A stretch of DNA of 64,000 nt from the NCBI RefSeq assembly GCF_024502345.1, contig NZ_JALDNN010000001.1; one strand, given 5' to 3'. Below the pieces are notes generated by a model, which worked only from the letters and a program-made list of their open reading frames with translations, was not told where the DNA came from and searched no databases. Source of the DNA: Escherichia coli (lineage in GTDB: Bacteria; Pseudomonadota; Gammaproteobacteria; Enterobacterales; Enterobacteriaceae). The translations under genes and the position numbers were made by a program. Shown here in pieces: positions 1,182 to 58,765 of the stretch (its first letter is position 1; each line of letters opens with the position of its first letter).

Positions 1182-1657
1182 ATGAGTGATATTATTTACC
1201 TGACCATAACCGGAGAACAACAAGGATGTATTTCCTCTCGTTGTGGAACGAGCGCATCAATAGGTAATCGCTGGCAGATTGGCCATGATGATGAAATCTT
1301 CGCGTTCTCGCTCTCTAATAGTATTACGAATACAGGCAAAGGGTCATAATTGCATGGCCTTAGTTTCTGTAAATTGATTGACAAAAGCTCCCCGTTACTT
1401 ATTAACGCTATTAACAATAACGAGCAGTTGTTCATGGAGTTTGACTTCTATCGGATCAATAGGTTTGGTCGATGGGAGAAATATTACAACATTCAACTCC
1501 GCGGCGCGCTCTTATCAGCAATCAATCACCTGTTTACTGAGAACAATCTGGATACAGAAGCCATCACTGTCAGTTATGAATATATACTCTCCAGGCATCT
1601 GATTGCTAATACTGAATTTAGTTATTTGGCATTTCCCGATAACTACAACCGTCTGTT
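1182..1657 (+). pseudogene. hcp: T6SS Hcp-family tube protein gene, disrupted by in-frame TAA (1347-1349) and truncated at 1657 by IS903-like insertion
   Basis: Translation MSDIIYLTITGEQQGCISSRCGTSASIGNRWQIGHDDEIF..GKGS*LHGLSFCKLIDKSSPLLINAINNNEQLFMEFDFYRINRFG.. matches Hcp family signature (KLIDKSSP, FxFYRIN); N- and C-parts are in the same frame separated by TAA. Confidence 0.7.
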
Positions 1658-2714
1658 GGCTTTGTTGAATAAATCGAACTTTTGCTGAGTTGAAGGATCA
1701 GATCACGTATCTTCCCGACAACGCAGACCGTTCCGTGGCAAAGCAAAAGTTCAAAATCACCAACTGGCCCACCTACAATAAAGCCCTCATCAACCGTGGC
1801 TCCATAACTTTCTGGCTGGATGATGAAGCTATTCAGGCCTGGTATGAGTCAGCAACACCTTCTTCACGAGGCAGACCTCAGCGCTATTCTGACCTTGCCA
1901 TCACGACTGTGCTGGTCATTAAACGCGTATTCAGGCTGACCCTGCGCGCTGCGCAGGGCTTTATTGATTCCATTTTTTCTCTGATGAACGTTCCGCTACG
2001 CTGCCCGGATTACAGCTGTGTCAGCAGGCGGGCAAAGTCGGTTAATGTCAGTTTCAAAACGCCCACCCGGGGTGAAATCGCACACCTGGTAATTGATTCC
2101 ACCGGGCTGAAGGTCTTCGGTGAAGGCGAGTGGAAAGTCAAAAAGCATGGCCAGGAACGCCGCCGTATCTGGCGTAAGCTGCATCTCGCCGTTGACAGTA
2201 AAACACATGAAATCATCTGCGCTGACCTGTCGCTGAACAACGTTACGGACTCAGAGGCCTTCCCCGGGTTAATCCGGCAAACCCACCGGAAAATCAGGTC
2301 AGCCGCCGCCGATGGCGCTTACGATACCCGGCTATGTCACGATGAACTGCGGCGTAAGAAAATCAGCGCGCTTATCCCTCCCCGAAAAGGTGCGGGTTAC
2401 TGGCCCGGTGAATATGCAGACCGTAACCGTGCAGTGGCTAATCAGCGAATGACCGGGAGTAATGCGCGGTGGAAATGGACAACAGATTACAACCGTCGCT
2501 CGATAGCGGAAACGGCGATGTACCGGGTAAAACAGCTGTTCGGGGGTTCACTGACACTGCGTGACTACGATGGTCAGGTTGCAGAGGCTATGGCCCTGGT
2601 ACGAGCGCTGAACAAAATGACGAAAGCAGGTATGCCTGAAAGCGTGCGTATTGCCTGAAAACACAACCCGCTACGGGGGAGACTTACCCGAAATCTGATT
2701 TATTCAACAAAGCC
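1658..2714 (+). mobile_element. IS903-family (IS5 family) insertion sequence, 1057 bp, 18-bp terminal inverted repeats, flanked by 9-bp direct target duplication CCGTCTGTT (1649-1657 and 2715-2723)
   Basis: Left end GGCTTTGTTGAATAAATCG at 1658, right end GATTTATTCAACAAAGCC ending 2714; identical 9-mers on both flanks read directly from sequence; single DDE transposase ORF inside. Confidence 0.9.
1735..2658 (+). CDS. IS903-family DDE transposase (307 aa if GTG start at 1735; six-frame ORF extends to 1690)
   Basis: IS5-family transposase motifs (DSTGLKVFGEGEWKVKKHG..RRIWRKLHLAVD); lies inside the inverted-repeat-bounded element. Confidence 0.8.
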   Translation: MAKQKFKITNWPTYNKALINRGSITFWLDDEAIQAWYESATPSSRGRPQRYSDLAITTVLVIKRVFRLTLRAAQGFIDSIFSLMNVPLRCPDYSCVSRRAKSVNVSFKTPTRGEIAHLVIDSTGLKVFGEGEWKVKKHGQERRRIWRKLHLAVDSKTHEIICADLSLNNVTDSEAFPGLIRQTHRKIRSAAADGAYDTRLCHDELRRKKISALIPPRKGAGYWPGEYADRNRAVANQRMTGSNARWKWTTDYNRRSIAETAMYRVKQLFGGSLTLRDYDGQVAEAMALVRALNKMTKAGMPESVRIA

Positions 2715-2852
2715 CCGTCTGTTTATACCACGGCCAAAAACTAAAGCTGGTAATGGTTCAAAACACTTAATAGTAAAGCGGTTGGCAGACTGCTTGCTGC
2801 TGGCGGCATATACAATGGGAATATCGAAGGATTCAGGGAAACAGCAGACAAG

Positions 2853-3395
2853 TTGGGGGGAGATGCACCTGCTGGTTACGATCAATTTATGGATAACAAA
2901 GGGTTACTCATCGCTGGTGCTTCAATAGTTGCTGGAGCAGTTCTGGGGAGAATGAGACTCCCTGATTTGGAATCACTTGAGCATTTCGGAGCCAGAGGAG
3001 CAGTATCAGGAAGACCATTTAATCCCGACCTTGCCGGTGGTCCAATAGAAAATCTGACGACAGATGGCGTAACAATCAACAGGGAAGGTATCGCTATTGT
3101 TGAAAAACACATAGCCAGATTTGGTCATGACCCTGTAAATGAAGTGATGATCAATAGACTGAAAGACATTGAGAAAGGAAAAATCCCCCCAGAACAAGTA
3201 GATCTTAACTTCTATACTCATGAGTGTCGGGAATATCAGCGTTACTGTAATCTTGGTTGGGAAACAGGACAACCTGATGGTGACGCAGGCTATGCACTCT
3301 GGAATCATACGCATACTGCTACTCTAGAAGATTATAAACTTAAGGGAGAACTTAATGACTTATACCACCAGGATGCACTTGACTATGATAACTGA
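2853..3395 (+). CDS. Orphan toxin-like C-terminal domain ORF (possible extension domain of the disrupted Hcp, Hcp-ET type); frame is open back to 2754 without ATG
   Basis: 180-aa ORF with TTG start and no ATG upstream in frame, directly downstream of hcp/IS; overlaps the next small ORF; no catalytic motif recognised by eye. Confidence 0.35.
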   Translation: MGGDAPAGYDQFMDNKGLLIAGASIVAGAVLGRMRLPDLESLEHFGARGAVSGRPFNPDLAGGPIENLTTDGVTINREGIAIVEKHIARFGHDPVNEVMINRLKDIEKGKIPPEQVDLNFYTHECREYQRYCNLGWETGQPDGDAGYALWNHTHTATLEDYKLKGELNDLYHQDALDYDN

Positions 3396-3630
3396 AACTG
3401 AAATTAACGTACTGAAAGTTATGGCTGAGAAAGATATAAACTGGAACTGGATGAATCTCGATCGCACACTATCCATAAGGCAAATTCCAGGATTCGGTAA
3501 TGTTGTTAACATTGTTAACAAATTAGCTAACGAGGGTTTGGTTATTATTGAGGATAGCGGACATAAGTCTATGCCTCACTACCACGTTACTGAAAAGGGA
3601 TACAATTTCGTGAAAAGTGAGAATAAATAA
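3385..3630 (+). CDS. Small ORF in immunity-protein position (81 aa from ATG 3385; alternative start 3355)
   Basis: ATG overlaps the last codons of the upstream ORF (ATGATAACTGA arrangement), typical of translationally coupled toxin-immunity pairs; function not recognisable. Confidence 0.3.
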   Translation: MITETEINVLKVMAEKDINWNWMNLDRTLSIRQIPGFGNVVNIVNKLANEGLVIIEDSGHKSMPHYHVTEKGYNFVKSENK

Positions 3631-7365: not shown

Positions 7366-8152
7366 TAAACGTTGGCCAGTGCGGCTGTTGGTGCCAGATA
7401 GCCAGGTTAACCAGCAGCCCTGCCGGAACGTGCATATTATTCATAATGCCCAGCGTTCCGGCGTCCACCTGCGTCGCGCCGTAGTTCCACATAAAGTAGC
7501 CAATCCCGGAAGCCACCACGCCAAGAAACACCAGAATGCCCCATTGCAACGTGGTTTGCGGCATTTTCTGCGCATTTCCCAGCAAGAACCATGCAATTAC
7601 CGCCACCAGGAACGCGCCAAGATAGAACCACGCAAAGGCGTTATGCTGCGGCATCGGGCGAGTTTCCATCAGGCGTTTGTAACCCACCATGCCGATGGCA
7701 AAAGTGATATTGGAGAGTTGCACCAGCAACAAGCCAGTCCAGAAATGGTCGGTGACCTGATCATAGCGAATAATCCCGGCACCAATCACCGCCAACAAGG
7801 CACTAAAAGCATATCCCCAGCGCAGACGGCGCTTACTCATGATGTCATAAATCAGCGTGATGTAGAGCGGCGTCAGTACGGTGAACAGCAGCAGTTCGGA
7901 AACCGTCAGGTAGAGATAAGCGCGGAAACTCAGCATATACATCACGCCGAGCTGCATCGCGCCCACCAGCATATACAGGCCGACTGTTTTCAGGCTATTG
8001 CCACGGGTACGCAGAAACGGCAGAAAAACGAGTGCCGCCAGGCCAACGCGCACCAGCACCGCAAAATAGCTATCGACGTGCCCCGCAAGGTACTCGCCAT
8101 AAAAGCTAAAGGAGAAGGCCCACAGAATCGTGGTGATGATAAGTAGCGCCAC
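7253..8152 (-). CDS. yigM: EamA/DMT-family inner membrane transporter (biotin transporter YigM)
   Basis: 299-aa polytopic membrane ORF; K-12 synteny; 3' end overlaps the metR 3' end convergently. Confidence 0.85.
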
Positions 8153-8227
8153 AATGGAAAACTCTTTGATTAACGAGTATCCATTGTAGCGAAGTATCAG
8201 GTTGACAACTGACCAAATAAAGAACGA

Positions 8228-9028
8228 TTACGATAAATAGAGTTTACGCAGATAATGCGGCACCGCGTCGTCGGCATTAGTACCAATCACTTCCAGCTCG
8301 GGATGAAGGTCTTTCAGACGCTGGTGCGCACTGCCCATAATGCAGCCTTTCCCCGCCATCGACAGCATTTCGGCATCGTTCATCCCGTCACCAAACGCAA
8401 TACAATCCTTCAGGCTGTAGCCCAGTTTCTTCGCCACCGCTTCCAGCGCATGGCCTTTTGAAACGCCGCCCGCCATCACTTCCAGACAGGTTAAGGTAGA
8501 GAAACTAACGTTGACGCGATCGCCCCAACGAGCGTTAATCGCCTGCTCCAGCGGCAGCAGTTGTTCATGGGAATCGCAGGTGAAGAACACTTTGCTGACG
8601 CCTTCCGGCTCCAGTAATCCAGGCTCATACAGCGCATATTTGAACACCGCTTCTTTAAAAAAGCGCATCTCTTCCGGGCGATGGCGATTCATAAACCATT
8701 CGTCGTCGCGATAAACGTTAGTAATGATGTCCGGATTGTCGTTGACTACGCCAAACAGATCGCTGGCAATGTCGCGATCCAGGTTATGAGCAAAAATCAG
8801 ATTGCCATCCAGATCGTGAACGCGCGCGCCGTTGGAGGTGATCATGTACGACTTGATCTCCAGATTATCGCGAATTTGCCCCACATCAACGTGGTGACGA
8901 CCGGTCGCAAACACAAAGTTGATGCCGCGCGCGGTGAGCAGCTTCAGGGTTTCTTTGGCGTAAGGGGATAACGTATGGTCGGGAGAAAGTAACGTGCCAT
9001 CTAAATCAGACGCAACAACCTGGTACAT
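8228..9028 (-). CDS. yigL: HAD-family Cof-type sugar/pyridoxal phosphate phosphatase
   Basis: Start taken at MYQVVASDLDGTLL (HAD motif I DxDGT); longer six-frame ORF to 9154 rejected; downstream of pldB in same orientation. Confidence 0.85.
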   Translation of the reverse strand: MYQVVASDLDGTLLSPDHTLSPYAKETLKLLTARGINFVFATGRHHVDVGQIRDNLEIKSYMITSNGARVHDLDGNLIFAHNLDRDIASDLFGVVNDNPDIITNVYRDDEWFMNRHRPEEMRFFKEAVFKYALYEPGLLEPEGVSKVFFTCDSHEQLLPLEQAINARWGDRVNVSFSTLTCLEVMAGGVSKGHALEAVAKKLGYSLKDCIAFGDGMNDAEMLSMAGKGCIMGSAHQRLKDLHPELEVIGTNADDAVPHYLRKLYLS

Positions 9029-9035
9029 AAGAAAT

Positions 9036-10058
9036 TTAAACCTCTGTAGAGCGGTTTCCGCTGGGTGAGTTATGCCTGTTGAAAAAATCAACAATGGCGT
9101 GGAGCGCGACTGAGCGCATTGCGTCCTTTTCAAAAAGGATCTCATGGTAAGCACCTTTAATTACCAACGGTCGTCCTCCTTCGACAGGATGGCCCGCGGC
9201 GGTGCGGAGTTCACAAAAACGGTCATGCATGCGGTTATCCACCACGCGTTCCTCTTCAGCCTGCAAGAGAAGCGTTGGCGTGGCGTCATCACCCGCACCG
9301 GCTAACACCTGTTCGCCAGCCAGAATACTTTCGCGTACCCAATGGTAGGTCGGCCCACCGACGCGAATCGTTGGGTCATCAGCATAGAAGCGTAAGTTAC
9401 GTCGATATCGCTGTCTGCTGTGGGTCAGTACGTTGATAGCAAACGGCAACGCGCGCCAGCGCCCGGTGCCTATTGCATAGCCATCACGGAAACGTGGATG
9501 CGCTTCGGCCCAGTTGAGGATCTGCCGTGCCATAAATGACGGCATACGAATCACGATCCCAAACATTGGCGCAGTTAGCGCAATGGCGTCACATACACCT
9601 GGATGGCGTTGCAGAAATAATGTGGAGATCGCACCGCCCATCGAATGTGCCAGTATATAGCGTTTACGCCACGGACCGGGCTGGACCTCCTGTTGCCAGA
9701 ATGCCGCCAGATCATCAACATAATCATTAAAGCGATTAACATGCCCGAGATGCGGATCGGCTAACAGGCGACCGGAACGTCCCTGCCCGCGATGGTCGAT
9801 GATTAAGACATCAAACCCCAAATGGAACAAATCGTAGGCCAGTTCCGCATATTTTACGTAGCTCTCAATACGCCCCGGGCAGATGACTACCACCCGGTCA
9901 TGGTGCTGTGCGCGAAAACGGACAAAGCGCACCGGAATGTCATCCACACCAGTAAACTCTGCTTCATCACGCTGACGCCAGAAATCAGTCAGCGGTCCCA
10001 TGGTAAAAGCAGCAAACGCGTTTTCTCTTGTTTCCCAGTCTTTTTGCTGTTGAAACAT
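9036..10058 (-). CDS. pldB: Lysophospholipase L2
   Basis: 340-aa alpha/beta hydrolase with HSMGG nucleophile motif; synteny. Confidence 0.9.
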   Translation of the reverse strand: MFQQQKDWETRENAFAAFTMGPLTDFWRQRDEAEFTGVDDIPVRFVRFRAQHHDRVVVICPGRIESYVKYAELAYDLFHLGFDVLIIDHRGQGRSGRLLADPHLGHVNRFNDYVDDLAAFWQQEVQPGPWRKRYILAHSMGGAISTLFLQRHPGVCDAIALTAPMFGIVIRMPSFMARQILNWAEAHPRFRDGYAIGTGRWRALPFAINVLTHSRQRYRRNLRFYADDPTIRVGGPTYHWVRESILAGEQVLAGAGDDATPTLLLQAEEERVVDNRMHDRFCELRTAAGHPVEGGRPLVIKGAYHEILFEKDAMRSVALHAIVDFFNRHNSPSGNRSTEV

Positions 10059-10168
10059 CGGGTAATCTGCCTCTTAAACCACGTAAAATCGTTTTTTTTA
10101 GCGTGCCTGACACAACGCTGCGACAGTAGCGTATTGTGGCACAAAAATAGACACACCGGGAGTTCATC

Positions 10169-10798
10169 ATGACCTTAGAATGGTGGTTTGCCTACCTGCT
10201 GACATCGATCATTTTAAGCCTGTCGCCAGGCTCTGGTGCAATCAACACTATGACCACCTCGCTCAACCACGGTTATCGCGGCGCGGTGGCGTCTATTGCT
10301 GGGCTTCAGACCGGACTGGCGATTCATATTGTGCTGGTTGGCGTGGGGTTGGGGACGCTATTTTCCCGCTCAGTGATTGCGTTTGAAGTGTTGAAGTGGG
10401 CAGGCGCGGCTTACTTGATTTGGCTTGGGATCCAGCAATGGCGCGCCGCTGGCGCAATTGATCTTAAATCGCTGGCCTCTACTCAATCGCGTCGACATTT
10501 GTTCCAGCGCGCAGTTTTTGTGAATCTCACCAATCCCAAAAGTATTGTGTTTCTGGCGGCGCTATTTCCGCAATTCATCATGCCGCAACAGCCGCAACAG
10601 CCGCAACTGATGCAGTATATCGTGCTCGGCGTCACCACTATTGTGGTCGATATTATTGTGATGATCGGTTACGCCACCCTTGCTCAACGGATTGCTCTAT
10701 GGATTAAAGGACCAAAGCAGATGAAGGCGCTGAATAAGATTTTCGGCTCGTTGTTTATGCTGGTGGGAGCGCTGTTAGCATCGGCGAGGCATGCGTGA
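10169..10798 (+). CDS. rhtB: LysE/RhtB-family homoserine/homoserine-lactone exporter
   Basis: 209-aa membrane ORF, LysE-family; divergent partner of rhtC as in K-12. Confidence 0.9.
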
Positions 10799-10806
10799 AA
10801 AATAAT

Positions 10807-10836
10807 GTCGGATGCGGCGTAAACGCCTTATCCGAC
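10807..10836. repeat. REP element
   Basis: GTCGGATGCGGCGTAAACGCCTTATCCGAC palindrome between convergent rhtB and rhtC. Confidence 0.6.
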
Positions 10837-10859
10837 TTACTCTGAAGACGCGTCTGGCA

Positions 10860-11480
10860 TCACCGCGAAATAATCAAATGAATGCCAAATCCGGCAAATA
10901 ACGCCCCGGCAAAACCATCAATCCACTTCGCCAGACGTTGATAACCACGGCGCATTTGCGGCAGGGCAAACAGGCTGGCAACGACGGTAAACCACGCCAG
11001 TGTTTCGATAATAATCAACGCGAAAATGCCCCAGCGCTCAGTGGTGCCGACGTTATCGCCGACAAACAGCGAGAATACCGAACCAAAGTAGATAATCGCT
11101 TTCGGATTAGCGAGATTGGTCAGTAAACCTTTCAGGAAACTGCGCCCGCTTTTCGCCAGCTCAATCTGTGGTGCAGGCGCAGATACAGCCTCTTTTTTCA
11201 GTGCACCGCGTAGCATCTGGTAACCCATCCAGCAGAGATACAGGCCACCGCCAACCATAATCAGCGTATGCAGCCAGGCCATTTTTTCGATAATCAAATG
11301 CAGGCCAAGCAACGCAATCCCAGCCCAAACCATTACACCGCAGGTAATGCCCAGCACGCCCATCATCGCTTCTTTACGGGAACGACTGACAGCGGTCTGA
11401 GAGACAAAAAAGAAATCGGGACCGGGGCTCATAAGCGCCACAATATGCACCATGGCGACGGTGAGAAATAACATCAACAT
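10860..11480 (-). CDS. rhtC: LysE/RhtB-family threonine exporter
   Basis: 206-aa membrane ORF paralogous to rhtB; synteny. Confidence 0.9.
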   Translation of the reverse strand: MLMLFLTVAMVHIVALMSPGPDFFFVSQTAVSRSRKEAMMGVLGITCGVMVWAGIALLGLHLIIEKMAWLHTLIMVGGGLYLCWMGYQMLRGALKKEAVSAPAPQIELAKSGRSFLKGLLTNLANPKAIIYFGSVFSLFVGDNVGTTERWGIFALIIIETLAWFTVVASLFALPQMRRGYQRLAKWIDGFAGALFAGFGIHLIISR

Positions 11481-11543
11481 ACATTTGACTCGCGGGGGAA
11501 ACGTTTACGGAGTCTTCATCCTGGCACTTTTTTATGCCGCTGA

Positions 11544-13379
11544 CTACTCTTCGTCGTCGCCGTCGACATGCGCACGAATCAGCGTCATAAACGGTTTGCC
11601 AAAGCGTTCCAGCTTGCGCATCCCAACGCCGTTAACGCTGAGCATTTCGCTGGCGGTGATCGGCATCTGTTCAGCCATCTCAATCAAGGTTGCGTCGTTA
11701 AACACCACGTACGGCGGGACATTGCTTTCATCGGCAATCGATTTACGCAGTTTGCGTAATTTGGCGAACAGTTTGCGATCATAGTTGCCGCCGAACGATT
11801 TCTGCATCGCTTTCGGTTTGAGCGCCACGATACGCGGCACGGCAAGTTGCAAAGAGGATTCGCCGCGCAGCACCGGGCGCGCGGCCTCTGTCAGTTGGAG
11901 GGCAGAATGCTGGGCAATATTTTGCGTCACCAGGCCGAGGTGAATCAGCTGGCGGATCACGCTCACCCAATGTTCATGGCTTTTATCACGGCCCATGCCA
12001 TAGACTTTCAGTTTGTCATGACCATAGTCGCGGATACGCTGGTTATTAGCACCACGAATCACTTCCACCACATAACCCATCCCAAACCGCTGATTCACAC
12101 GACCAATGGTGGAAAGCGCAATCTGTGCATCGGTTGAACCGTCGTACTGTTTCGGCGGATCGAGGCAGATATCGCAGTTTCCGCACGGCTCCTGCCGCCC
12201 TTCGCCAAAGTAGTTCAGCAGTACCAGACGACGGCAAGTTTGCGCTTCGGCAAACGCGCCCATCGCATTGAGTTTGTGGCGCTCGATATCCTGCAACTGC
12301 CCCTGCGGCTTCTCTTCCAGACAACGGCGCAGCCACGCCATATCAGCCGGATCGTAAAACAGCATCGCTTCCGCAGGCAGGCCATCACGCCCGGCGCGAC
12401 CGGTTTCCTGATAATAGGATTCGATATTGCGCGGAATATCAAAGTGGACCACGAAGCGAACGTTTGGTTTATTGATGCCCATGCCGAACGCCACCGTCGC
12501 CACCACAATTTGCAGGTCATCGCGCTGGAATTTCTCCTGCACGTCGGCGCGGACATTATTTTCCAGCCCGGCATGATAGGCCGCCGCGCTAATACCCTTG
12601 CTTTGCAGGCGCGCAGCGGTGTCTTCTACTTTCGCCCGGCTGTTGCAGTAGATAATGCCGGACTTACCGCGCTGTTCCTGCACGTAGCGCATCAACTGAT
12701 CGAGCGGTTTGAATTTCTCCATCAGCATGTAGCGAATATTCGGACGGTCAAAACTGCTGATTTGAATCAGCGGATCGTTCAGCCCCAGCAGGCGCACGAT
12801 ATCCTGGCGCGTGGTGTCGTCGGCTGTGGCGGTCAGCGCCATAAACGGCAGCGTCGGGAACCGCTGGCGCAACTGACCGAGCGCGGCATATTCCGGGCGG
12901 AAATCGTGGCCCCATTGGGAGATACAGTGCGCTTCATCAACGGCTAATAACACCGGATTCCAGTGCGCCAGATGCTCAAGAAAGTTATCCAGCATCAGGC
13001 GTTCCGGGGCGATATAAAGCAGACGAATTTGCCCGGTGCGGCAGCCTGTCATCACTTCAAGTTGCTGTTCGCGGGTTTGCGTCGAGTTAAGGCACGCCGC
13101 CGCCACGCCGTTGGCTTGCAGTTGATCCACCTGATCTTTCATCAACGAAATCAGCGGTGAAACAATCACGGTAAGGCCGTTTAGCAATAAGGCAGGAATT
13201 TGATAGCAAAGGGATTTTCCGCCACCGGTGGGCATGACGACCAGGCAATCGCGACCGGAAAGCACAGTGTCGATAATTTCTTCCTGGCCGGGGCGAAACT
13301 GTTGGTAGCCAAAGGTTTCTTGTAAAACCTGTTTAGCTCCGGACTCCAGATTCAACACTTCCGCCTGCGCCACATTCAC
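11544..13379 (-). CDS. recQ: ATP-dependent DNA helicase RecQ (start may be the GTG at 13373)
   Basis: Walker A PTGGGKS, DEAH box ([15 protein letters not shown]), zinc-binding CGNCDIC, C-terminal HRDC region. Confidence 0.95.
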
Positions 13380-13505
13380 CCCGATTGCCTGAAATAAAAA
13401 CAGGCGCTATTTTCAGCGCCTGCGCGAGAAACTGCAATGCTTTTAGTCTCTGAGAGGGTAATCCTGGATGCTGGATTCCAGATTTGCCAACCACTCAACC
13501 GTTCA

Positions 13506-14375
13506 TCAAAACAAATCGTTTAGCATAACCCCCACACCGACACGGGTCTGGTTGAAGTTATAGTCGATGAGCGATTCGCCATAGCCGCTGTAAACCTGAG
13601 TATAAAGGCGCACATGTTTGGTGATCGGGTAACTTAAGCCTAACTCCGCGCCGCCGTAGCCGGTGTTCCAGTTGTACTGTCCTTTCGCACTGAGCACCGC
13701 ATCACCGAGGTGATAGCCGATTTTAAGCTGGTAGTAACCCATATATTTGGTGATATCCGGGTTATCGTCAGTATTACCCACCACATACCACGGCTTCACT
13801 TCTACCAGCCAGTTACCGTTTTCTGCCATCAGGCGAGTATAAAGGCGGTTCCAGCTGCGGGAGGTCGGGTCTGAACGCCCGTTAGAGTCGTGGTTATACC
13901 CCATCTCCACATCGCGCAGTGTCCAGCCTGCAAAACGGTAATCGGTGGCAAAACCGAGGAACAATTGCGGTTCGTAGTTGGTTTCACGAAACGGTGAAGA
14001 CTCTTCGCTATTGGACAGTTGCCACCAGGATTTTTGCGTATAAGACGCACCCAACACCGAGTTCGGGCCTAAAATCCCACGCCACAGCGGAAATGCCAGG
14101 CTCAACTGAAACTTTACTTCATCCTTACGCGCATTTTCCGCCCAGTCGTAACTGGCAATCGCTTCTTTATTCAGATCGCTGGTTTGTGTGTAGATGAGGT
14201 AGTTGGTGTCATAAGGATAGAGCGTGAACGGATTATCATGCTCCTGCAGCATATTGGCGATAATACTGCCACGCACCGCTGGCGCGTCATGCACCTCTTT
14301 CACCGTTGCCTCTTGTGCATATACTGCCATAGGCAACATAAACACCGGCAACAACCAGCCCTGCAGAGTCCGCAT
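13506..14375 (-). CDS. pldA: Outer membrane phospholipase A
   Basis: 289-aa ORF with signal peptide; beta-barrel phospholipase A family; synteny. Confidence 0.95.
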   Translation of the reverse strand: MRTLQGWLLPVFMLPMAVYAQEATVKEVHDAPAVRGSIIANMLQEHDNPFTLYPYDTNYLIYTQTSDLNKEAIASYDWAENARKDEVKFQLSLAFPLWRGILGPNSVLGASYTQKSWWQLSNSEESSPFRETNYEPQLFLGFATDYRFAGWTLRDVEMGYNHDSNGRSDPTSRSWNRLYTRLMAENGNWLVEVKPWYVVGNTDDNPDITKYMGYYQLKIGYHLGDAVLSAKGQYNWNTGYGGAELGLSYPITKHVRLYTQVYSGYGESLIDYNFNQTRVGVGVMLNDLF

Positions 14376-14539
14376 CGGTCGTGTTCTCCGTAACGAATTA
14401 TTGATAAGGTGAATGTTTTTCTGCGGGCTATTTTACATACTTAACTCCATTGCCGTTAGTTATCCCTTCCTAAAGTAGAAACCAACAACAAAGAAGCATA
14501 AAATCAACATTTCATTAACCAATGAAGTGTAAGGATGAT

Positions 14540-15007
14540 ATGTCTGCCGTACTGACCGCTGAACAAGCCCTGAAATTAGTGGGTGAGATGTTTGTTTATC
14601 ACATGCCATTTAACCGCGCATTGGGGATGGAACTGGAGCGTTACGAAAAAGAGTTCGCACAGCTGGCCTTTAAAAATCAGCCGATGATGGTGGGTAACTG
14701 GGCGCAAAGCATTTTGCACGGCGGAGTCATTGCGTCGGCGCTGGATGTCGCCGCCGGTCTGGTGTGCGTGGGAAGTACCTTAACCCGCCACGAAACCATC
14801 AGTGAAGATGAACTACGCCAGCGGCTATCGCGGATGGGGACCATTGATCTTCGCGTTGATTATCTGCGCCCAGGCAGGGGCGAGCGTTTTACTGCTACCA
14901 GTAGCCTGTTGCGTGCAGGCAATAAAGTCGCCGTCGCCCGCGTTGAATTACACAATGAAGAACAGCTTTATATTGCCAGTGCCACCGCCACCTATATGGT
15001 AGGTTGA
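14540..15007 (+). CDS. yigI: PaaI/hotdog-fold thioesterase
   Basis: Start MSAVLTAEQ.. preceded by AAGGA; hotdog thioesterase family; synteny. Confidence 0.8.
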
Positions 15008-15058
15008 AGACATAAAAGCAGGTAAACTGCTGTTACCAATTAAAAATGAGTATTCCCG

Positions 15059-15946
15059 ATGGATGCAAAACAAACGCGGCAGGGCGTATTACTCGCTCTT
15101 GCCGCTTATTTTATTTGGGGTATTGCGCCAGCATACTTCAAGCTGATTTACTACGTGCCCGCCGATGAAATCCTGACGCATCGCGTGATCTGGTCGTTTT
15201 TCTTTATGGTGGTGCTGATGAGCATTTGCCGCCAGTGGTCCTATTTAAAAACGCTGATTCAGACGCCACAGAAAATTTTTATGCTGGCAGTCTCTGCCGT
15301 GCTGATTGGTGGCAACTGGCTACTGTTTATCTGGGCGGTGAACAATCACCATATGCTGGAAGCGAGCCTTGGTTACTTTATTAACCCGCTGGTGAACATT
15401 GTGCTGGGGATGATTTTCCTCGGCGAGCGATTCCGCCGGATGCAATGGCTGGCGGTGATTCTGGCGATATGTGGCGTGTTAGTCCAGCTGTGGACTTTTG
15501 GTTCGCTACCTATTATCGCGCTGGGACTGGCATTTAGTTTTGCCTTCTACGGTCTGGTACGCAAGAAGATTGCCGTTGAAGCGCAAACCGGCATGTTAAT
15601 TGAAACCATGTGGCTGCTGCCCGTGGCGGCAATTTACCTGTTTGCTATTGCCGACAGCTCAACCAGCCATATGGGGCAAAACCCGATGTCGCTGAATTTA
15701 CTGCTGATCGCCGCCGGTATTGTCACTACCGTACCGCTGTTGTGTTTTACCGCCGCTGCCACGCGCTTGCGTCTCTCAACGTTAGGCTTTTTCCAGTACA
15801 TTGGCCCGACGCTGATGTTCCTGCTGGCTGTGACGTTTTATGGTGAAAAACCGGGTGCCGATAAGATGGTGACTTTCGCCTTTATTTGGGTGGCGCTGGC
15901 AATTTTTGTGATGGATGCGATTTATACGCAGCGTAGAAAAAGTTAA
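15059..15946 (+). CDS. rarD: EamA/DMT-family membrane protein RarD
   Basis: 295-aa polytopic membrane ORF; synteny. Confidence 0.9.
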   Translation: MDAKQTRQGVLLALAAYFIWGIAPAYFKLIYYVPADEILTHRVIWSFFFMVVLMSICRQWSYLKTLIQTPQKIFMLAVSAVLIGGNWLLFIWAVNNHHMLEASLGYFINPLVNIVLGMIFLGERFRRMQWLAVILAICGVLVQLWTFGSLPIIALGLAFSFAFYGLVRKKIAVEAQTGMLIETMWLLPVAAIYLFAIADSSTSHMGQNPMSLNLLLIAAGIVTTVPLLCFTAAATRLRLSTLGFFQYIGPTLMFLLAVTFYGEKPGADKMVTFAFIWVALAIFVMDAIYTQRRKS

Positions 15947-15956
15947 GAATTAACAT

Positions 15957-16005
15957 GGGTAGGCCGTTTAATGAGCCTACCCACTGACTTATTTATCTTT
16001 TTTTG
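15957..16005. terminator. Hairpin GGGTAGGC/GCCTACCC followed by T-rich run; candidate bidirectional terminator after rarD
   Basis: 8-bp perfect stem read from sequence, then TTATTTATCTTTTTTTG. Confidence 0.55.
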
Positions 16006-16337
16006 AAAAAAATTAAGATAAGAAAAAGAACAATATTTGTTACAGGAAGTACCCCCAAAACTCCCCAGTACTTACTCCATCCTAGAGACATCGTATATCT
16101 ACCAAGGATTTGACAAAACCCAAAACTTAACCCTATACCTATACTTCTTAAATTTAATGTCGTAGTCAGGCTTAAAATAAATAGAACAAGGATGGTAATA
16201 GCCCACCACAATAACCATGCCTTAACAAAATCAGATTTTTTGCTGTAAGGTTCTTTACCCAAGAACAACTGCCAAAAGTTACCATTCCCCATATAGAATC
16301 CATTCCCCAAGATATTGTTTATAGAATAAAAATACAT
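15993..16337 (-). CDS. Small hypothetical inner-membrane protein (114 aa, two predicted TM helices), AT-rich
   Basis: ORF with hydrophobic segments AWLLWWAITILVLFILSL and WGVLGVLPVTNIVLFLILIFF; possibly the yigG-position gene; identity not verified. Confidence 0.4.
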   Translation of the reverse strand: MYFYSINNILGNGFYMGNGNFWQLFLGKEPYSKKSDFVKAWLLWWAITILVLFILSLTTTLNLRSIGIGLSFGFCQILGRYTMSLGWSKYWGVLGVLPVTNIVLFLILIFFKKR

Positions 16338-16616
16338 TCCAATTATATTTAATTAAAATATACCCCATCAATAAAAACTTACACACTCTAAATTACTACT
16401 GTATAGTTATCAATGCAAAGACTGCTATATTGCATATATATATGCAAACCTCATAATTCAGGTAATATATATATTCAAAACAATTATATATAAAAAACAA
16501 TGTAAAAAATATTCAAATCATCCATCAGAAATATATTCTACCCATCCAGGCTTGAGCATTTATCACGCTTTCAGTTCATAATCTATACATTAACATCATG
16601 GTCAATATTAATAACT

Positions 16617-16895
16617 TTGAATGATATCAACCTGGCTTTGAGTTTTATTCTGGTTATTAATAATACCTATGTAAATATCAATATTGGAGCAAAAAGAATA
16701 AGAGATACTGGATGTAAGGCAATCTACTTTGTATTGATTTCATTGGGTTTGACACTTTTTTCTATTATCTCTGCAGCAATTGAAGGGGTGAGATGTGAGT
16801 CATTAAGCGTCCAACTCAACGTGGCATGGATATTATTCACAACAATTATGTTATCTGCGATTCCCTCGGCTAAAATGTCGCTGTCAGCACACTAA
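16617..16895 (+). CDS. Small hypothetical membrane ORF (92 aa, TTG start, no ATG in open upstream frame); possibly a 5'-truncated remnant, DUF805-like RIRDTG motif
   Basis: Hydrophobic ORF; in-frame upstream sequence is open to 16506 without a Met codon. Confidence 0.3.
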   Translation: MNDINLALSFILVINNTYVNINIGAKRIRDTGCKAIYFVLISLGLTLFSIISAAIEGVRCESLSVQLNVAWILFTTIMLSAIPSAKMSLSAH

Positions 16896-16919
16896 CTTAC
16901 TCACAGCGACATCGTATAG

Positions 16920-17062
16920 TTACAGCCAGTTCTTGCGCTTAAAGTACAGATACGGTGCCAGGCCCGCGAGGATCATAAAGATAATCGCGCCTGGGTAGCC
17001 GAAACTCCACTTCAGTTCTGGCATAAACTCAAAGTTCATGCCATAGCTGGAGGCAATCGGCG
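16920..17062 (-). pseudogene. Duplicated, diverged 3' fragment of corA (last ~47 codons, about 95 percent identical to 19416-19558)
   Basis: Encodes [48 protein letters not shown], near-identical to the CorA C-terminus; homology ends abruptly near 17062. Confidence 0.85.
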
Positions 17063-17233
17063 TAGGAAAAAGTTTCCTAATCGGTAAATTCAATATTTTG
17101 TTATTAACAATGAGCAAGACCAATCATTAACGACGTTCTCTTCAGAGATGTAATGAAAAAATGTGAAGTGTACTTCTTTTTTAAATATTTTTTTACCCTA
17201 GCATTTGTTCTCAAATTGGGTAATGACTCCAAC

Positions 17234-17737
17234 TTATTGATAGTGTTTTATGTTCAGATAATGCCCGATGACTTTGTCATGCAGCTCCACCGATTTTGAG
17301 AACGACAGCGACTTCCGTCCCAGCCGTGCCAGGTGCTGCCTCAGATTCAGGTTATGCCGCTCAATTCGCTGCGTATATCGCTTGCTGATTACGTGCAGCT
17401 TTCCCTTCAGGCGGGATTCATACAGCGGCCAGCCATCCGTCATCCATATCACCACGTCAAAGGGTGACAGCAGGCTCATAAGACGCCCCAGCGTCGCCAT
17501 AGTGCGTTCACCGAATACGTGCGCAACAACCGTCTTCCGGAGCCTGTCATACGCGTAAAACAGCCAGCGCTGGCGCGATTTAGCCCCGACGTATCCCCAC
17601 TGTTCGTCCATTTCCGCGCAGACGATGACGTCACTGCCCGGCTGTATGCGCGAGGTTACCGACTGCGGCCTGAGTTTTTTAAATGGCGGAAAATCGTGTT
17701 GAGGCCAACGCCCATAATGCGGGCGGTTGCCCGGCAT
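17234..17737 (-). CDS. insB: IS1 InsB (expressed as InsAB' transposase by -1 frameshift)
   Basis: 167-aa ORF typical of IS1 InsB, overlapping insA 3' end. Confidence 0.95.
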
Positions 17738-17931
17738 CCAACGCCATTCATGGCCATATCAATGATTTTCTGGTGCGTACCGGGTTGAGAAGCGGTGTAA
17801 GTGAACTGCAGTTGCCATGTTTTACGGCAGTGAGAGCAGAGATAGCGCTGATGTCCGGCGGTGCTTTTGCCGTTACGCACCACCCCGTCAGTAGCTGAAC
17901 AGGAGGGACAGCTGATAGAAACAGAAGCCAC
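17656..17931 (-). CDS. insA: IS1 InsA
   Basis: 91-aa [46 protein letters not shown].. identical in character to IS1 InsA. Confidence 0.95.
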
Positions 17932-18029
17932 TGGAGCACCTCAAAAACACCATCATACACTAAATCAGTAAGTTGGCAGCATCACCCTCAAATTGATATT
18001 GAGCTTAAATATAACCAAGGAAAATGTAA

Positions 18030-18886
18030 ATGAATAACACATTACTTCCATCAATTAATATTCCCTGTACACTTTTCGAAACTATTAGTTTATTTGATGA
18101 TTATTCTGCTGATGATATGCAATATGGTGATATGGTGATATGGTAGAACAAGATTTTCTCTCACTCGGCCTAAGCGATATCTCAGCAAAAGTTGATCCTT
18201 ACAGACTTATTAAATACCATTTCCCTAGCCCAGGTTCTATTAATGTTGCTTTTAGTGCCTCAAGTTCCGGAACAAAAATATCACAACGTGAATGCACTGA
18301 TATTTTATTTGCAGAAATGAAAGAACTAGCAAAAATGTTTTCCTTTTTTGGACAATATAAAACACTTATCGAAGATCTGATTGAACATTTTAGATATGGA
18401 AATGGCAGCAATTTTCATAGCCAACAATTAAATTTATCTTTTCATGAAAAAATAAATAAATATGGTTATAATAGTCCAATACGAATAATCAAAGAATGTA
18501 TCGAAAATGGCATTAATTCAACTCCCTCGACAGGATACCAACCTCTTATCCTGCAAAGCATTAAAACCAAATTACTTTCATCAAGACTAAATAAATTTAA
18601 TGACTTCGAGGACAGTTTTAATGGCTTAGGAATCAGTGTTCATGATATTTCAGCTCAAAAAATATCTCTTTTAAGTTTTCAAAAATACGCTATAGGATGG
18701 AGTGCAACAATTCATTTTGTAGCACAGGACCACTTCGGTCTTGATGTAACTGATATCAAAAACAAGACTTACAGCAAATATAGATTTTTTCGCATATGGT
18801 TCTTTTTACAACGGCATAAAGACTTTGCTTTCAAACCTTTTTTCACCAATTTTAACACTATCGAAAGAATCGAAAATTATCTATGA
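18030..18886 (+). CDS. Hypothetical protein, first gene of accessory two-gene cassette; currently split: 38-codon leader ORF (18030-18146) plus 248-aa ORF (18140-18886) separated by an 8-bp tandem-repeat frameshift
   Basis: ATG 18030 preceded by AAGGA at 9 nt; removing one 8-bp repeat unit fuses the two ORFs into about 283 aa; AT-rich; no recognisable family motif by eye. Confidence 0.55.
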
Positions 18887-19374
18887 AAAGCAAACTCCAG
18901 AAAATTATATTATGTTTATTTCTTCTATGCTGCATCTATAATTTATGGACATTGCGTCCTGTACAGATTTTGTATACATACTCTGATGCTGGCAATTCAG
19001 TCTTTCTGGTCGTTGATCATCTGCCATGGACTGACAGCGATAAAATAAATTGGTATCTGAAGCATCAGAATGAAATTAAAAATCAACATCCCCTACCAGA
19101 AGGTAGTTGGCATACCTGGTATGTCATTGATATCGGTAATGGCTTCACTGACTATAAAAAATATATCGAAGGGCCGTATGAAGATCTCTACTGTTTCCCG
19201 ACAATTAAGAGCAATGATAATTGCATCGTGAAAAATTACTTAATGGTTATTAATGAATACCCTTATCGTAACACTCATATTGTTATTAACGATTTTACTG
19301 AGTATCAATTAACACAAGAAAATAAAATAGAGCGAGTTTTCAATCCGCATGACTTTAAAAAAGACAATTTTTAG
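18883..19374 (+). CDS. Hypothetical signal-anchored/exported small protein (163 aa), second gene of cassette, translationally coupled (ATGA overlap)
   Basis: N-terminal hydrophobic segment KIILCLFLLCCIYNLW; start overlaps stop of upstream gene; AT-rich. Confidence 0.6.
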   Translation: MKSKLQKIILCLFLLCCIYNLWTLRPVQILYTYSDAGNSVFLVVDHLPWTDSDKINWYLKHQNEIKNQHPLPEGSWHTWYVIDIGNGFTDYKKYIEGPYEDLYCFPTIKSNDNCIVKNYLMVINEYPYRNTHIVINDFTEYQLTQENKIERVFNPHDFKKDNF

Positions 19375-19380
19375 AAATAA

Positions 19381-19408
19381 GCCGGATAAAAAAATAGCTT
19401 TATCCGGC
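19381..19408. terminator. REP-like hairpin GCCGGATAAA/TTTATCCGGC between convergent cassette gene and corA
   Basis: 10-bp perfect inverted repeat with 8-nt loop read from sequence. Confidence 0.5.
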
Positions 19409-19415
19409 ACTCATA

Positions 19416-37748: not shown

Positions 37749-37955
37749 AAAAAAACGCCTGCTCTTATTACGGAGCAGGCGTTAAAACAGGTCTGTATGA
37801 CAACAAGTGGGTGCTTCACTCAACGTTGTGTCCATGGTGTCTGATGAGGCATAAGCGACATCTGTCAGTGGACGATAAGCACCGTAAACGGCTCTGCGTC
37901 ATTCCGGAGTTTATGAGGCACTAAGGCGAACATAAGAGATGGAATGAGCATCTAC
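37749..37955 (-). ncRNA. glmZ: Small RNA GlmZ (regulator of glmS translation)
   Basis: About 207 nt on minus strand in the hemY-aslA spacer, ending in a 10-bp stem hairpin (GCCTGCTCCGTAATAAGAGCAGGCG) plus T7 run; sequence recognised from memory of E. coli GlmZ. Confidence 0.75.
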
Positions 37956-41584: not shown

Positions 41585-41661
41585 TGGTCGGCGAGAGAGG
41601 ATTCGAACCTCCGACCCACTGGTCCCAAACCAGTTGCGCTACCAAGCTGCGCTACTCGCCG
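41585..41661 (-). tRNA. proM: tRNA-Pro (anticodon UGG)
   Basis: Reverse complement CGGCGAGTAGCGCAGCTTGGTAGCGCAACTGGTTTGGGACCAGTGGGTCGGAGGTTCGAATCCTCTCTCGCCGACCA; cloverleaf with TGG anticodon. Confidence 0.95.
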
Positions 41662-41703
41662 AAATACTGCTTTTTGAATTTTTAGTTCAATTCTTTAAAG
41701 TCG

Positions 41704-41790
41704 TGGTGCGAGGGGGGGGACTTGAACCCCCACGTCCGTAAGGACACTAACACCTGAAGCTAGCGCGTCTACCAATTCCGCCACCTTCGC
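41704..41790 (-). tRNA. leuT: tRNA-Leu (anticodon CAG)
   Basis: 87-nt class II tRNA, reverse complement GCGAAGGTGGCGGAATTGGTAGACGCGCTAGCTTCAGGTG...CACCA. Confidence 0.95.
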
Positions 41791-41800
41791 ATTGTCACAA

Positions 41801-41877
41801 CTTCTAATAATGGGGTGGCTAATGGGATTCGAACCCACGACAACTGGAATCACAATCCAGGGCTCTACCAACTGAGC
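41801..41877 (-). tRNA. hisR: tRNA-His (anticodon GUG)
   Basis: Reverse complement GGTGGCTATAGCTCAGTTGGTAGAGCCCTGGATTGTGATTCCAG...CCACCCCA with extra 5' G. Confidence 0.95.
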
Positions 41878-41944
41878 TATAGCCACCACTACAAATCTTG
41901 TTACGCGGTATTACTACCACCGCAGCTCAAGCGCCGGGACTAAA

Positions 41945-42021
<77 letters not shown>

Positions 42022-58305: not shown

Positions 58306-58635
58306 TTACGCCAGGTTAGCGTCGAGGAACTCTTTCAACTGACCTTTAGACAGTGCACCCACTTTGGTTGCCGCCACTTCACCGTTTTTGAACAGCAGCA
58401 GAGTCGGGATACCACGGATGCCATATTTCGGCGCAGTGCCAGGGTTTTGATCGATGTTCAGTTTTGCAACGGTCAGTTTGCCCTGATATTCGTCAGCGAT
58501 TTCATCCAGAATCGGGGCGATCATTTTGCACGGACCGCACCACTCTGCCCAGAAATCGACGAGGATCGCCCCGTCCGCTTTGAGTACATCCGTGTCAAAA
58601 CTGTCGTCAGTCAGGTGAATAATTTTATCGCTCAT
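58306..58635 (-). CDS. trxA: Thioredoxin 1
   Basis: 109-aa protein [41 protein letters not shown] (WCGPC active site). Confidence 0.98.
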
Positions 58636-58765
58636 ATATAACTCCACAGGAATAAGCCTGGCGTGTTGGTTTCGTTGTTGGTGTAACATTAACCAACTAA
58701 AGGTTGACTTTATTTCACCGGATACGCTTTCGTAAAGCAATAGTAAGCTGATATTCTACCACACT

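Follow-up and report, generated by a model that had tools for sequence, protein, structure and literature searches.

Introduction

DUF3289 and DUF943 are protein families, both characterised in 2024–2025, that supply an antibacterial toxin and its immunity protein. We describe here a two-gene cassette at positions 18030–19374 of a 64,000-nucleotide stretch of Escherichia coli DNA (hereafter the window; NCBI RefSeq assembly GCF_024502345.1, contig NZ_JALDNN010000001.1), which is very probably an E. coli chromosomal copy of this effector–immunity pair. Among the closest described systems is T6EC1/T6IC1 of Yersinia pseudotuberculosis IP32881, which consists of the same two Pfam families in the same order as the E. 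coli pair. The T6EC1 toxin acts in the periplasm: the Yersinia PAAR-DUF3289 protein was toxic in the E. coli periplasm and rounded the cells, and the DUF943 protein encoded downstream gave rescue (Geller et al. 2024; PMC11148199). That study established toxicity and rescue, in assays that used BL21, and not secretion dependent on T6SS (type VI secretion system). T6EC1 is fused to PAAR inside a T6SS operon, whereas the E. coli toxin is a bare domain at a housekeeping locus and is frameshifted in the window. T6IC1 has a transmembrane helix at about residues 7–26 and is otherwise periplasmic, the topology also predicted for the E. coli DUF943 protein.

A second described member is the DUF3289 effector WP_042032936.1 of Aeromonas jandaei DSM 7311, which has a small membrane protein gene directly downstream. 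The A. jandaei protein, encoded apart from T6SS genes, was found in the T6SS-dependent secretome, and it mediated T6SS-dependent killing of prey without the pair (Fridman et al. 2025; PMC12135965). The killing was confirmed in liquid culture (2026 preprint; 10.64898/2026.01.27.701733). A third is BtpeA/BtpiA of Bacteroides fragilis, whose crystal structure (9jdi, BtpeA C-terminal domain with BtpiA) is the work of Li et al. 2025 (Cell Host Microbe 33:1901) as cited in PMC13402684; in the account given in that citing paper, BtpeA, an effector of 608 aa associated with the spike, requires the adaptor BtapC and leaves the cell together with BtaeB. In addition, DUF3289 is listed among PAAR-linked toxins (PMC8651086) and among PIX-domain effectors (10.1101/2023.07.16.549128), stands beside a vgrG gene in Enterobacter (PMC10763514), and was linked to DUF943 780 times as clusters in a Klebsiella survey (PMC12469244). 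DUF3289 has also been proposed as a homologue of colicin M, with structural similarity to PaeM (4G76) (PMC11148199).

Results

Identity of the two gene products

The locus in the window is made up of the following features.

18030–18886, plus strand: DUF3289 toxin gene (TIGR03034 / YPO3983 family), a frameshifted pseudogene; repaired product 282 aa, 32.5 kDa
18140–18886, plus strand: residual open reading frame (ORF) of the toxin gene, 248 aa, corresponding to toxin residues 35–282 and TIGR03034 positions 28–274
18883–19374, plus strand: DUF943 immunity gene, intact, 163 aa
19416–20366, minus strand: corA, an intact core gene that bounds the cassette on the right; relatives carry the corA annotation here too
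16920–17066, minus strand: duplicate of the corA 3' end, a truncated pseudogene fragment of 147 nt
17067–17218, plus strand: left part of the cassette leader, AT-rich (27.6% G+C), resuming at 17987–18029 past IS1
17219–17986, minus strand: insertion sequence IS1, 768 bp, with the InsA/InsB ORFs on the minus strand
18122–18144, plus strand: ATATGGTG tandem repeat, 2.9 copies (Tandem Repeats Finder)
19381–19408, between the convergent DUF943 and corA genes: G+C-rich hairpin with an 11-bp stem, likely terminator

The first-pass annotation of this DNA, made from the letters, had described two co-directional ORFs overlapping by ATGA, the second of 163 aa, and had guessed at a horizontally acquired T6SS-type effector with periplasmic immunity. 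Both ORFs are present as described, at 18140–18886 and 18883–19374, and the stop of the toxin gene overlaps the start of the DUF943 gene at 18883–18886. After in silico repair of the frameshift, the first product matched Pfam DUF3289 (PF11692; E = 2.1e-84) over residues 10–278, covering model positions 2–270 of 272. The score against NCBIfam TIGR03034 was 439 bits for the repaired protein and 386 bits for the residual ORF, the curated cut-off being 156 bits. The second product matched Pfam DUF943 (PF06092; E = 1.8e-26) at model positions 1–150 of 151. The guess was borne out by these families, by the predicted folds and gene order described below, and by the papers on homologues (PMC11148199, PMC12135965).

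Among 52 homologues of the toxin, nine residues (H232, F233, G234, D239, W254, L257, Q258, P267 and F268) are invariant. The motifs QDHFGLDxxD, FRxWFxLQ and KPFxT stand in the reading frame of the window and are likewise found in BtpeA, and a profile of the 52 homologues matched BtpeA at E = 4e-29. The earlier statement that the first gene carries no assignable motif was therefore mistaken, as the invariant DHFGLDxxD, FRxWFxLQ and KPF motifs of DUF3289 are all present.

The toxin was modelled with AlphaFold2 on the alignment of these 52 diverse homologues, and the model reached a predicted local distance difference test score (pLDDT) of 85 and a predicted template modelling score (pTM) of 0.83. 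Its predicted fold matches that of the solved DUF3289 family member in the 9jdi complex. The model of the DUF943 protein (pLDDT 88.7) likewise matches, as a prediction, the fold of the solved immunity partner of a DUF3289 toxin. Since both models match fold partners in 9jdi, the two genes correspond to the two partners of the solved T6SS effector–immunity complex. The amino acid identities to BtpeA and BtpiA are 21% and 11%, respectively; that pair belongs to another phylum and another type of T6SS.

Longer homologues of the toxin bear additional domains. Of 33 such proteins, nine carry PAAR, one DUF4280 and one Hcp, and further ones bear the cell-wall domains M23, SH3, PG_binding_1, LysM or M14. 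The PAAR fusions align to residues 9–274 of the E. coli toxin, and therefore the whole E. coli protein corresponds to the toxin domain. As the first-pass annotation had stated, no signal peptide was predicted in it.

The hydrophobic N-terminal anchor claimed for the second product was also recognised, as a predicted helix at residues 2–24 with the Kyte-Doolittle maximum at residues 8–26, preceded by K2, K4 and K7. The remainder is a predicted periplasmic alpha/beta domain with invariant Cys104 and Cys114; this cysteine pair suits a periplasmic disulfide, and the domain would accordingly lie outside the cytoplasm. Comparison of the O157 and CFT073 alleles gave 85% identity for the toxin, the catalytic C-terminus of which is nearly unchanged. 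For the immunity protein the value was 93%, which does not make it hypervariable, and rapid co-diversification of toxin and immunity protein was rejected on these identities.

Distribution and gene order of the pair

The distribution was examined in 5426 complete E. coli genomes, a gene being scored as present at 80% or more of its length. Beside corA, 2621 of these genomes have the toxin gene, 2645 have the immunity gene, and about 2620 have both; the presence/absence polymorphism and the co-occurrence of the two genes, both put forward earlier for checking, were thus observed. The pair occupies the rarD-corA locus in about 48% of the genomes. All copies of the toxin gene are chromosomal and none is on a plasmid. 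Carriers include O157:H7, CFT073, 536, Nissle 1917, strain C and BL21-lineage strains. The pair is absent from K-12, where the order is corA-yigF-yigG-rarD, and its genes are not yigF/yigG, in line with the first-pass annotation.

Outside E. coli, the DUF3289 gene was directly followed by one to three DUF943 genes in all five other contexts sampled. One of these is Salmonella enterica (records of subspecies houtenae and arizonae), with the pair at the same rarD-corA position; in another the pair lies between an acetyltransferase gene and valS, and the same order was found in two further housekeeping contexts. The remaining context is an Enterobacterales array (locus span 7632–12682), where two tandem PAAR-DUF3289 genes and a 62-aa DUF3289 remnant are accompanied by four DUF943 genes. 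In a second Enterobacterales array (locus span 10001–17175), two DUF3289 genes are joined by two and three DUF943 genes. Such arrays with toxin-less extra DUF943 copies follow the usual spare-immunity pattern of polymorphic toxins.

The toxin gene is broken in this strain

The toxin gene starts at ATG 18030, preceded by a good AAGGA ribosome-binding site. The repeat unit ATATGGTG is present in 2.9 copies in the window, as against two in O157:H7 strain 2149 and STEC388 by alignment, and the extra 8-bp copy shifts the frame so that reading from 18030 ends after 38 codons at TAG 18144–18146. Deletion of 8 bp in silico restored a protein of 282 aa, in which two residues are unlike those of its O157:H7 counterpart. 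The frameshift is thus repairable, as had been proposed, while the product is 282 aa in length and not about 283 aa. Residues 1–34 are missing from the residual ORF of 248 aa, so that it is without both a conserved strand at the N-terminus and the near-invariant positions D29, G33 and D34; no Shine-Dalgarno sequence was seen on reading the sequence upstream of its start at 18140. The coding sequence of the toxin in the window is therefore not intact. The relative HCP4S3_I4 shares the frameshift without IS1, and its allele is flagged as frameshifted in RefSeq; its DUF943 protein is identical to that of the window.

A second lesion is the IS1 element, inserted 43 bp upstream of the ATG of the toxin gene, which cuts the pair off from most of its leader. 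IS1 is flanked by a 9-bp target duplication, CTCAAATTG, at 17210–17218 and 17987–17995. It is absent from the locus in O157:H7 and HCP4S3_I4, and relatives with the insertion at the same position are annotated with IS1. By the 8-bp duplication and by IS1 between toxin and leader, the toxin gene is dead in this strain. As the toxin is dead and the immunity gene intact, the locus can at most provide immunity.

Of the complete E. coli genomes that have this type of allele, 1701 in number, only 1–2 showed the three-copy form of the repeat. On this count the 8-bp lesion is recent and not a common switch, and phase variation at the repeat as a common switch was rejected. Independent toxin lesions with the immunity gene kept were observed as a frameshift elsewhere in the gene (STEC388), as IS1 inside the gene, and as a 5' deletion, in one genome each.

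At least a dozen complete genomes also have IS1, of the subtypes IS1A, IS1B and IS1X2, in the interval that separates the corA fragment from the toxin gene, and STEC388 has its IS1-leader junction at the same position as the window. This recurrence could point to a hot spot, or else to an old insertion that recombination has spread.

Composition and origin of the locus

The AT-richness noted by the first-pass annotation was confirmed. The G+C content of 18030–19374 is 32.2% against 51.2% for the whole window, only 0.16% of equally long windows being as low, and the G+C content at third codon positions is 24–35% in the cassette against 61–63% in rarD and corA. The pair lies between IS1 (17219–17986) and the end of corA at 19416, also as described. 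The duplicated corA 3' end said to bracket the cassette is real: 16920–17066 is a direct repeat of the real corA end at 19416–19562, with 92% identity. The bracket is wider than proposed, since the duplicate sits beyond IS1, and it thus takes in IS1 and the 152-nt leader as well. The fragment aligns to the 3' ends of K-12 and Salmonella corA and then diverges into AT-rich sequence; it is labelled partial CorA in RefSeq for the relatives.

CFT073 and Salmonella have the simple order rarD-toxin-immunity-corA without a corA fragment. In STEC388 the order is rarD-yigG-yigF-corA'-IS1-toxin-immunity-corA, and in the window and O157 another AT-rich filler stands where yigGF would be. As an alternative content of the rarD-corA interval the pair is old, and its simple form occurs in B2-type E. 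coli and non-enterica Salmonella. Alignment showed that the cassette leader matches the spacer between rarD and toxin of CFT073 in its distal part. The composite form with a duplicated corA end is most likely a product of illegitimate recombination joining two alternative haplotypes; an origin by a mobile element bearing the pair is less likely. Of the earlier description of the cassette as inserted, its accessory nature at this locus stands, while insertion by a mobile element gives way to probable joining by recombination.

The filler in the window (15947–16919, 32% G+C) replaces the K-12 yigG-yigF segment between rarD and the corA fragment. Counting this filler, there are three or more alternatives in E. 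coli for what the rarD-corA interval contains. Within it, a hydrophobic 114-aa ORF (15993–16337, minus strand), annotated as hypothetical protein in relatives, had no match in Pfam, NCBIfam, PADLOC or PHROGs, and a 92-aa ORF (16617–16895) matched the YigF model weakly (E = 1e-4), far below the cut-off.

A promoter and terminator scan of the locus gave no more sites than shuffled sequence. Since terminator-like sites are as many as in shuffled sequence, a terminator function of the hairpin at 19381–19408 is suggested by its position only. At 17973–18000, across the end of IS1 and native sequence, there is a pattern match to a possible promoter, in a scan that performed no better than with shuffled sequence.

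Discussion

Proposed role of the pair

By family membership, fold, gene order, distribution and lesions, as obtained in this analysis, we identify the cassette with good confidence as an E. coli copy of the DUF3289/DUF943 antibacterial effector–immunity pair. For its function we refer to the papers on homologues, from which periplasmic toxicity, rescue by DUF943 and dependence on T6SS are taken by analogy. In intact strains, the DUF3289 protein would be made in the cytoplasm without an export signal and would load non-covalently onto T6SS as a 'cargo' effector whose gene lies apart from those of the T6SS. It would then be injected into the periplasm of neighbouring Gram-negative cells and damage the cell wall; both the delivery of the E. 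coli protein itself by T6SS and the exact chemistry of the damage are put forward here as what we infer. The DUF943 protein would be produced through translational coupling at the ATGA overlap and be held by its anchor in the inner membrane, the domain projecting into the periplasm, where, by analogy with the Yersinia pair only, it may bind and neutralise its partner and so block toxin arriving from sister cells. As a functional model for the E. coli toxin the A. jandaei protein serves best, because it is encoded away from T6SS genes, is secreted by T6SS and kills prey without the pair.

Several observations weigh against this proposal. Because DUF3289 spans residues 10–278, there is no recognisable delivery domain in the E. 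coli toxin. No T6SS core gene, vgrG or PAAR lies beside the pair in the window, the neighbours being rarD, corA and IS1, and the sole T6SS trace in the window is a decayed Hcp fragment about 16.5 kb from the pair. No T6SS dependence of any E. coli member is reported in the literature searched. Finally, the pair is carried by E. coli B strains (BL21 lineage), which we take to lack an active T6SS. In the annotation of the BL21-lineage matches nothing of the pair is flagged as broken. BL21 holds its own DUF943, yet the Yersinia toxin acted there; therefore either immunity is toxin-specific or the chromosomal copy is unexpressed.

Alternative explanations

In this and other strains with a broken toxin, the locus may be kept only for protection by DUF943 against the DUF3289 toxins of competitors, the toxin gene being left to decay. 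We give this slightly better than an even chance; it refines the identification as an effector–immunity pair and does not contradict it. In the window the toxin is frameshifted and IS1 lies upstream of it, while no lesion affects the immunity ORF, which is the same as in HCP4S3_I4. The other genomes with independent toxin lesions have likewise retained the immunity gene, DUF943 copies without an adjoining toxin exist in other genera, and the immunity gene is present at 80% or more of its length in about 24 more genomes than the toxin gene. However, loss of the toxin is rare, as judged from the 2621 and 2645 genomes with toxin and immunity gene and from the scarcity of the 8-bp lesion, and looks accidental rather than selected. 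Moreover, the frameshift removes the translational coupling of DUF943, and IS1 has been inserted upstream.

A more far-reaching proposal is that bare E. coli DUF3289 toxins act by a wall chemistry other than that of colicin M, that the pair is kept in roughly half of all E. coli, among them lineages whose T6SS does not function, mainly for protection by DUF943 against attackers, and that ATATGGTG would serve as a reversible off-switch of the toxin. We regard this reading as improbable.

About as improbable is a bacteriocin of the colicin M type, released from the cell, entering through a receptor and hydrolysing lipid II, with DUF943 as the counterpart of Cmi. Colicin M, PaeM and pectocin M1 have a periplasmic target, and Cmi, annotated as the colicin M immunity protein, is a small anchored periplasmic protein, as DUF943 is predicted to be. 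The likeness of DUF3289 to PaeM (4G76) and the rounding of cells reported in PMC11148199 would fit such an activity, and PaeM and pectocin M1 gave the longest fold alignments outside DUF3289 (131–184 positions), at a fold similarity that was not significant. A shared fold is thus proposed in the literature, whereas we found no significant similarity to colicin M-like systems in sequence, profile or fold. The 52-sequence DUF3289 profile against colicin M gave an hhalign probability of 0.3%, and DUF943 against Cmi one of 0.2%. A profile search of the Protein Data Bank returned no colicin M-like chain at E up to 10, and the motif DxYDx5HR was not found in the toxin by regular expression, its relaxed form included. 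Release and uptake are unlikely in particular, because no LexA box, lysis gene or uptake domain was found: no receptor-binding or translocation domain is present, the whole protein being the toxin domain borne by the PAAR fusions, and the pair is chromosomal and not plasmid-borne. Control by the SOS response as in colicins was rejected, since there is no LexA-box-like site in 15752–22465. The enzymatic half of this explanation, a lipid II target, could be compatible with delivery by T6SS.

Least probable of all is an intracellular toxin–antitoxin or anti-phage abortive-infection module. Two accessory genes that are AT-rich, coupled in translation and next to mobile DNA might be taken for one. 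Against it, neither protein was matched in PADLOC or PHROGs, on which anti-phage defence, and with it the small defence module offered earlier, was rejected. The DUF943 protein, with its predicted membrane anchor and a periplasmic domain that would bear a disulfide, is unlike a cytoplasmic antitoxin. In addition, homologues are fused to PAAR, Hcp or cell-wall-binding domains, and a homologue is toxic when directed to the periplasm (PMC11148199).

Significance

The first-pass annotation had presented the cassette as an uncharacterised system. As both families were characterised in 2024–2025 and RefSeq already names the pair DUF3289/YPO3983 and DUF943, it is an already known kind of system, here in an ordinary, partly decayed copy. 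What these RefSeq labels stand for can now be recognised as a toxin of the T6SS type that acts in the periplasm, together with its immunity protein. Beyond annotation the finding matters little, although the E. coli family member would be an easy model for T6SS loading of an effector that lacks a delivery domain and is encoded apart from T6SS genes.

Other features of the window

Three further features were recorded in the window.

37749–37955: GlmZ small RNA
41588–42021: cluster of four tRNA genes (Pro, Leu, His and Arg by the annotation of HCP4S3_I4, a relative)
58606–58705: thermometer in the 5' untranslated region of trxA

Between ysgA (60–788) and metE, a decayed stand-alone Hcp island extends over 1350–3630. 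Its ORF at 1350–1688 matches positions 68–161 of TssD/Hcp (TIGR03344; E = 4.7e-20) and is followed by an IS5-family transposase gene (1690–2658). Next comes a 180-aa ORF (2853–3395), which had no match in Pfam, NCBIfam or PHROGs and is overlapped by a 91-aa ORF (3355–3630); these ORFs may both be left over from a toxin linked to Hcp and the immunity gene that went with it. At the position of this island, HCP4S3_I4 has a gene annotated as 'tssD, frameshifted' followed by IS3.

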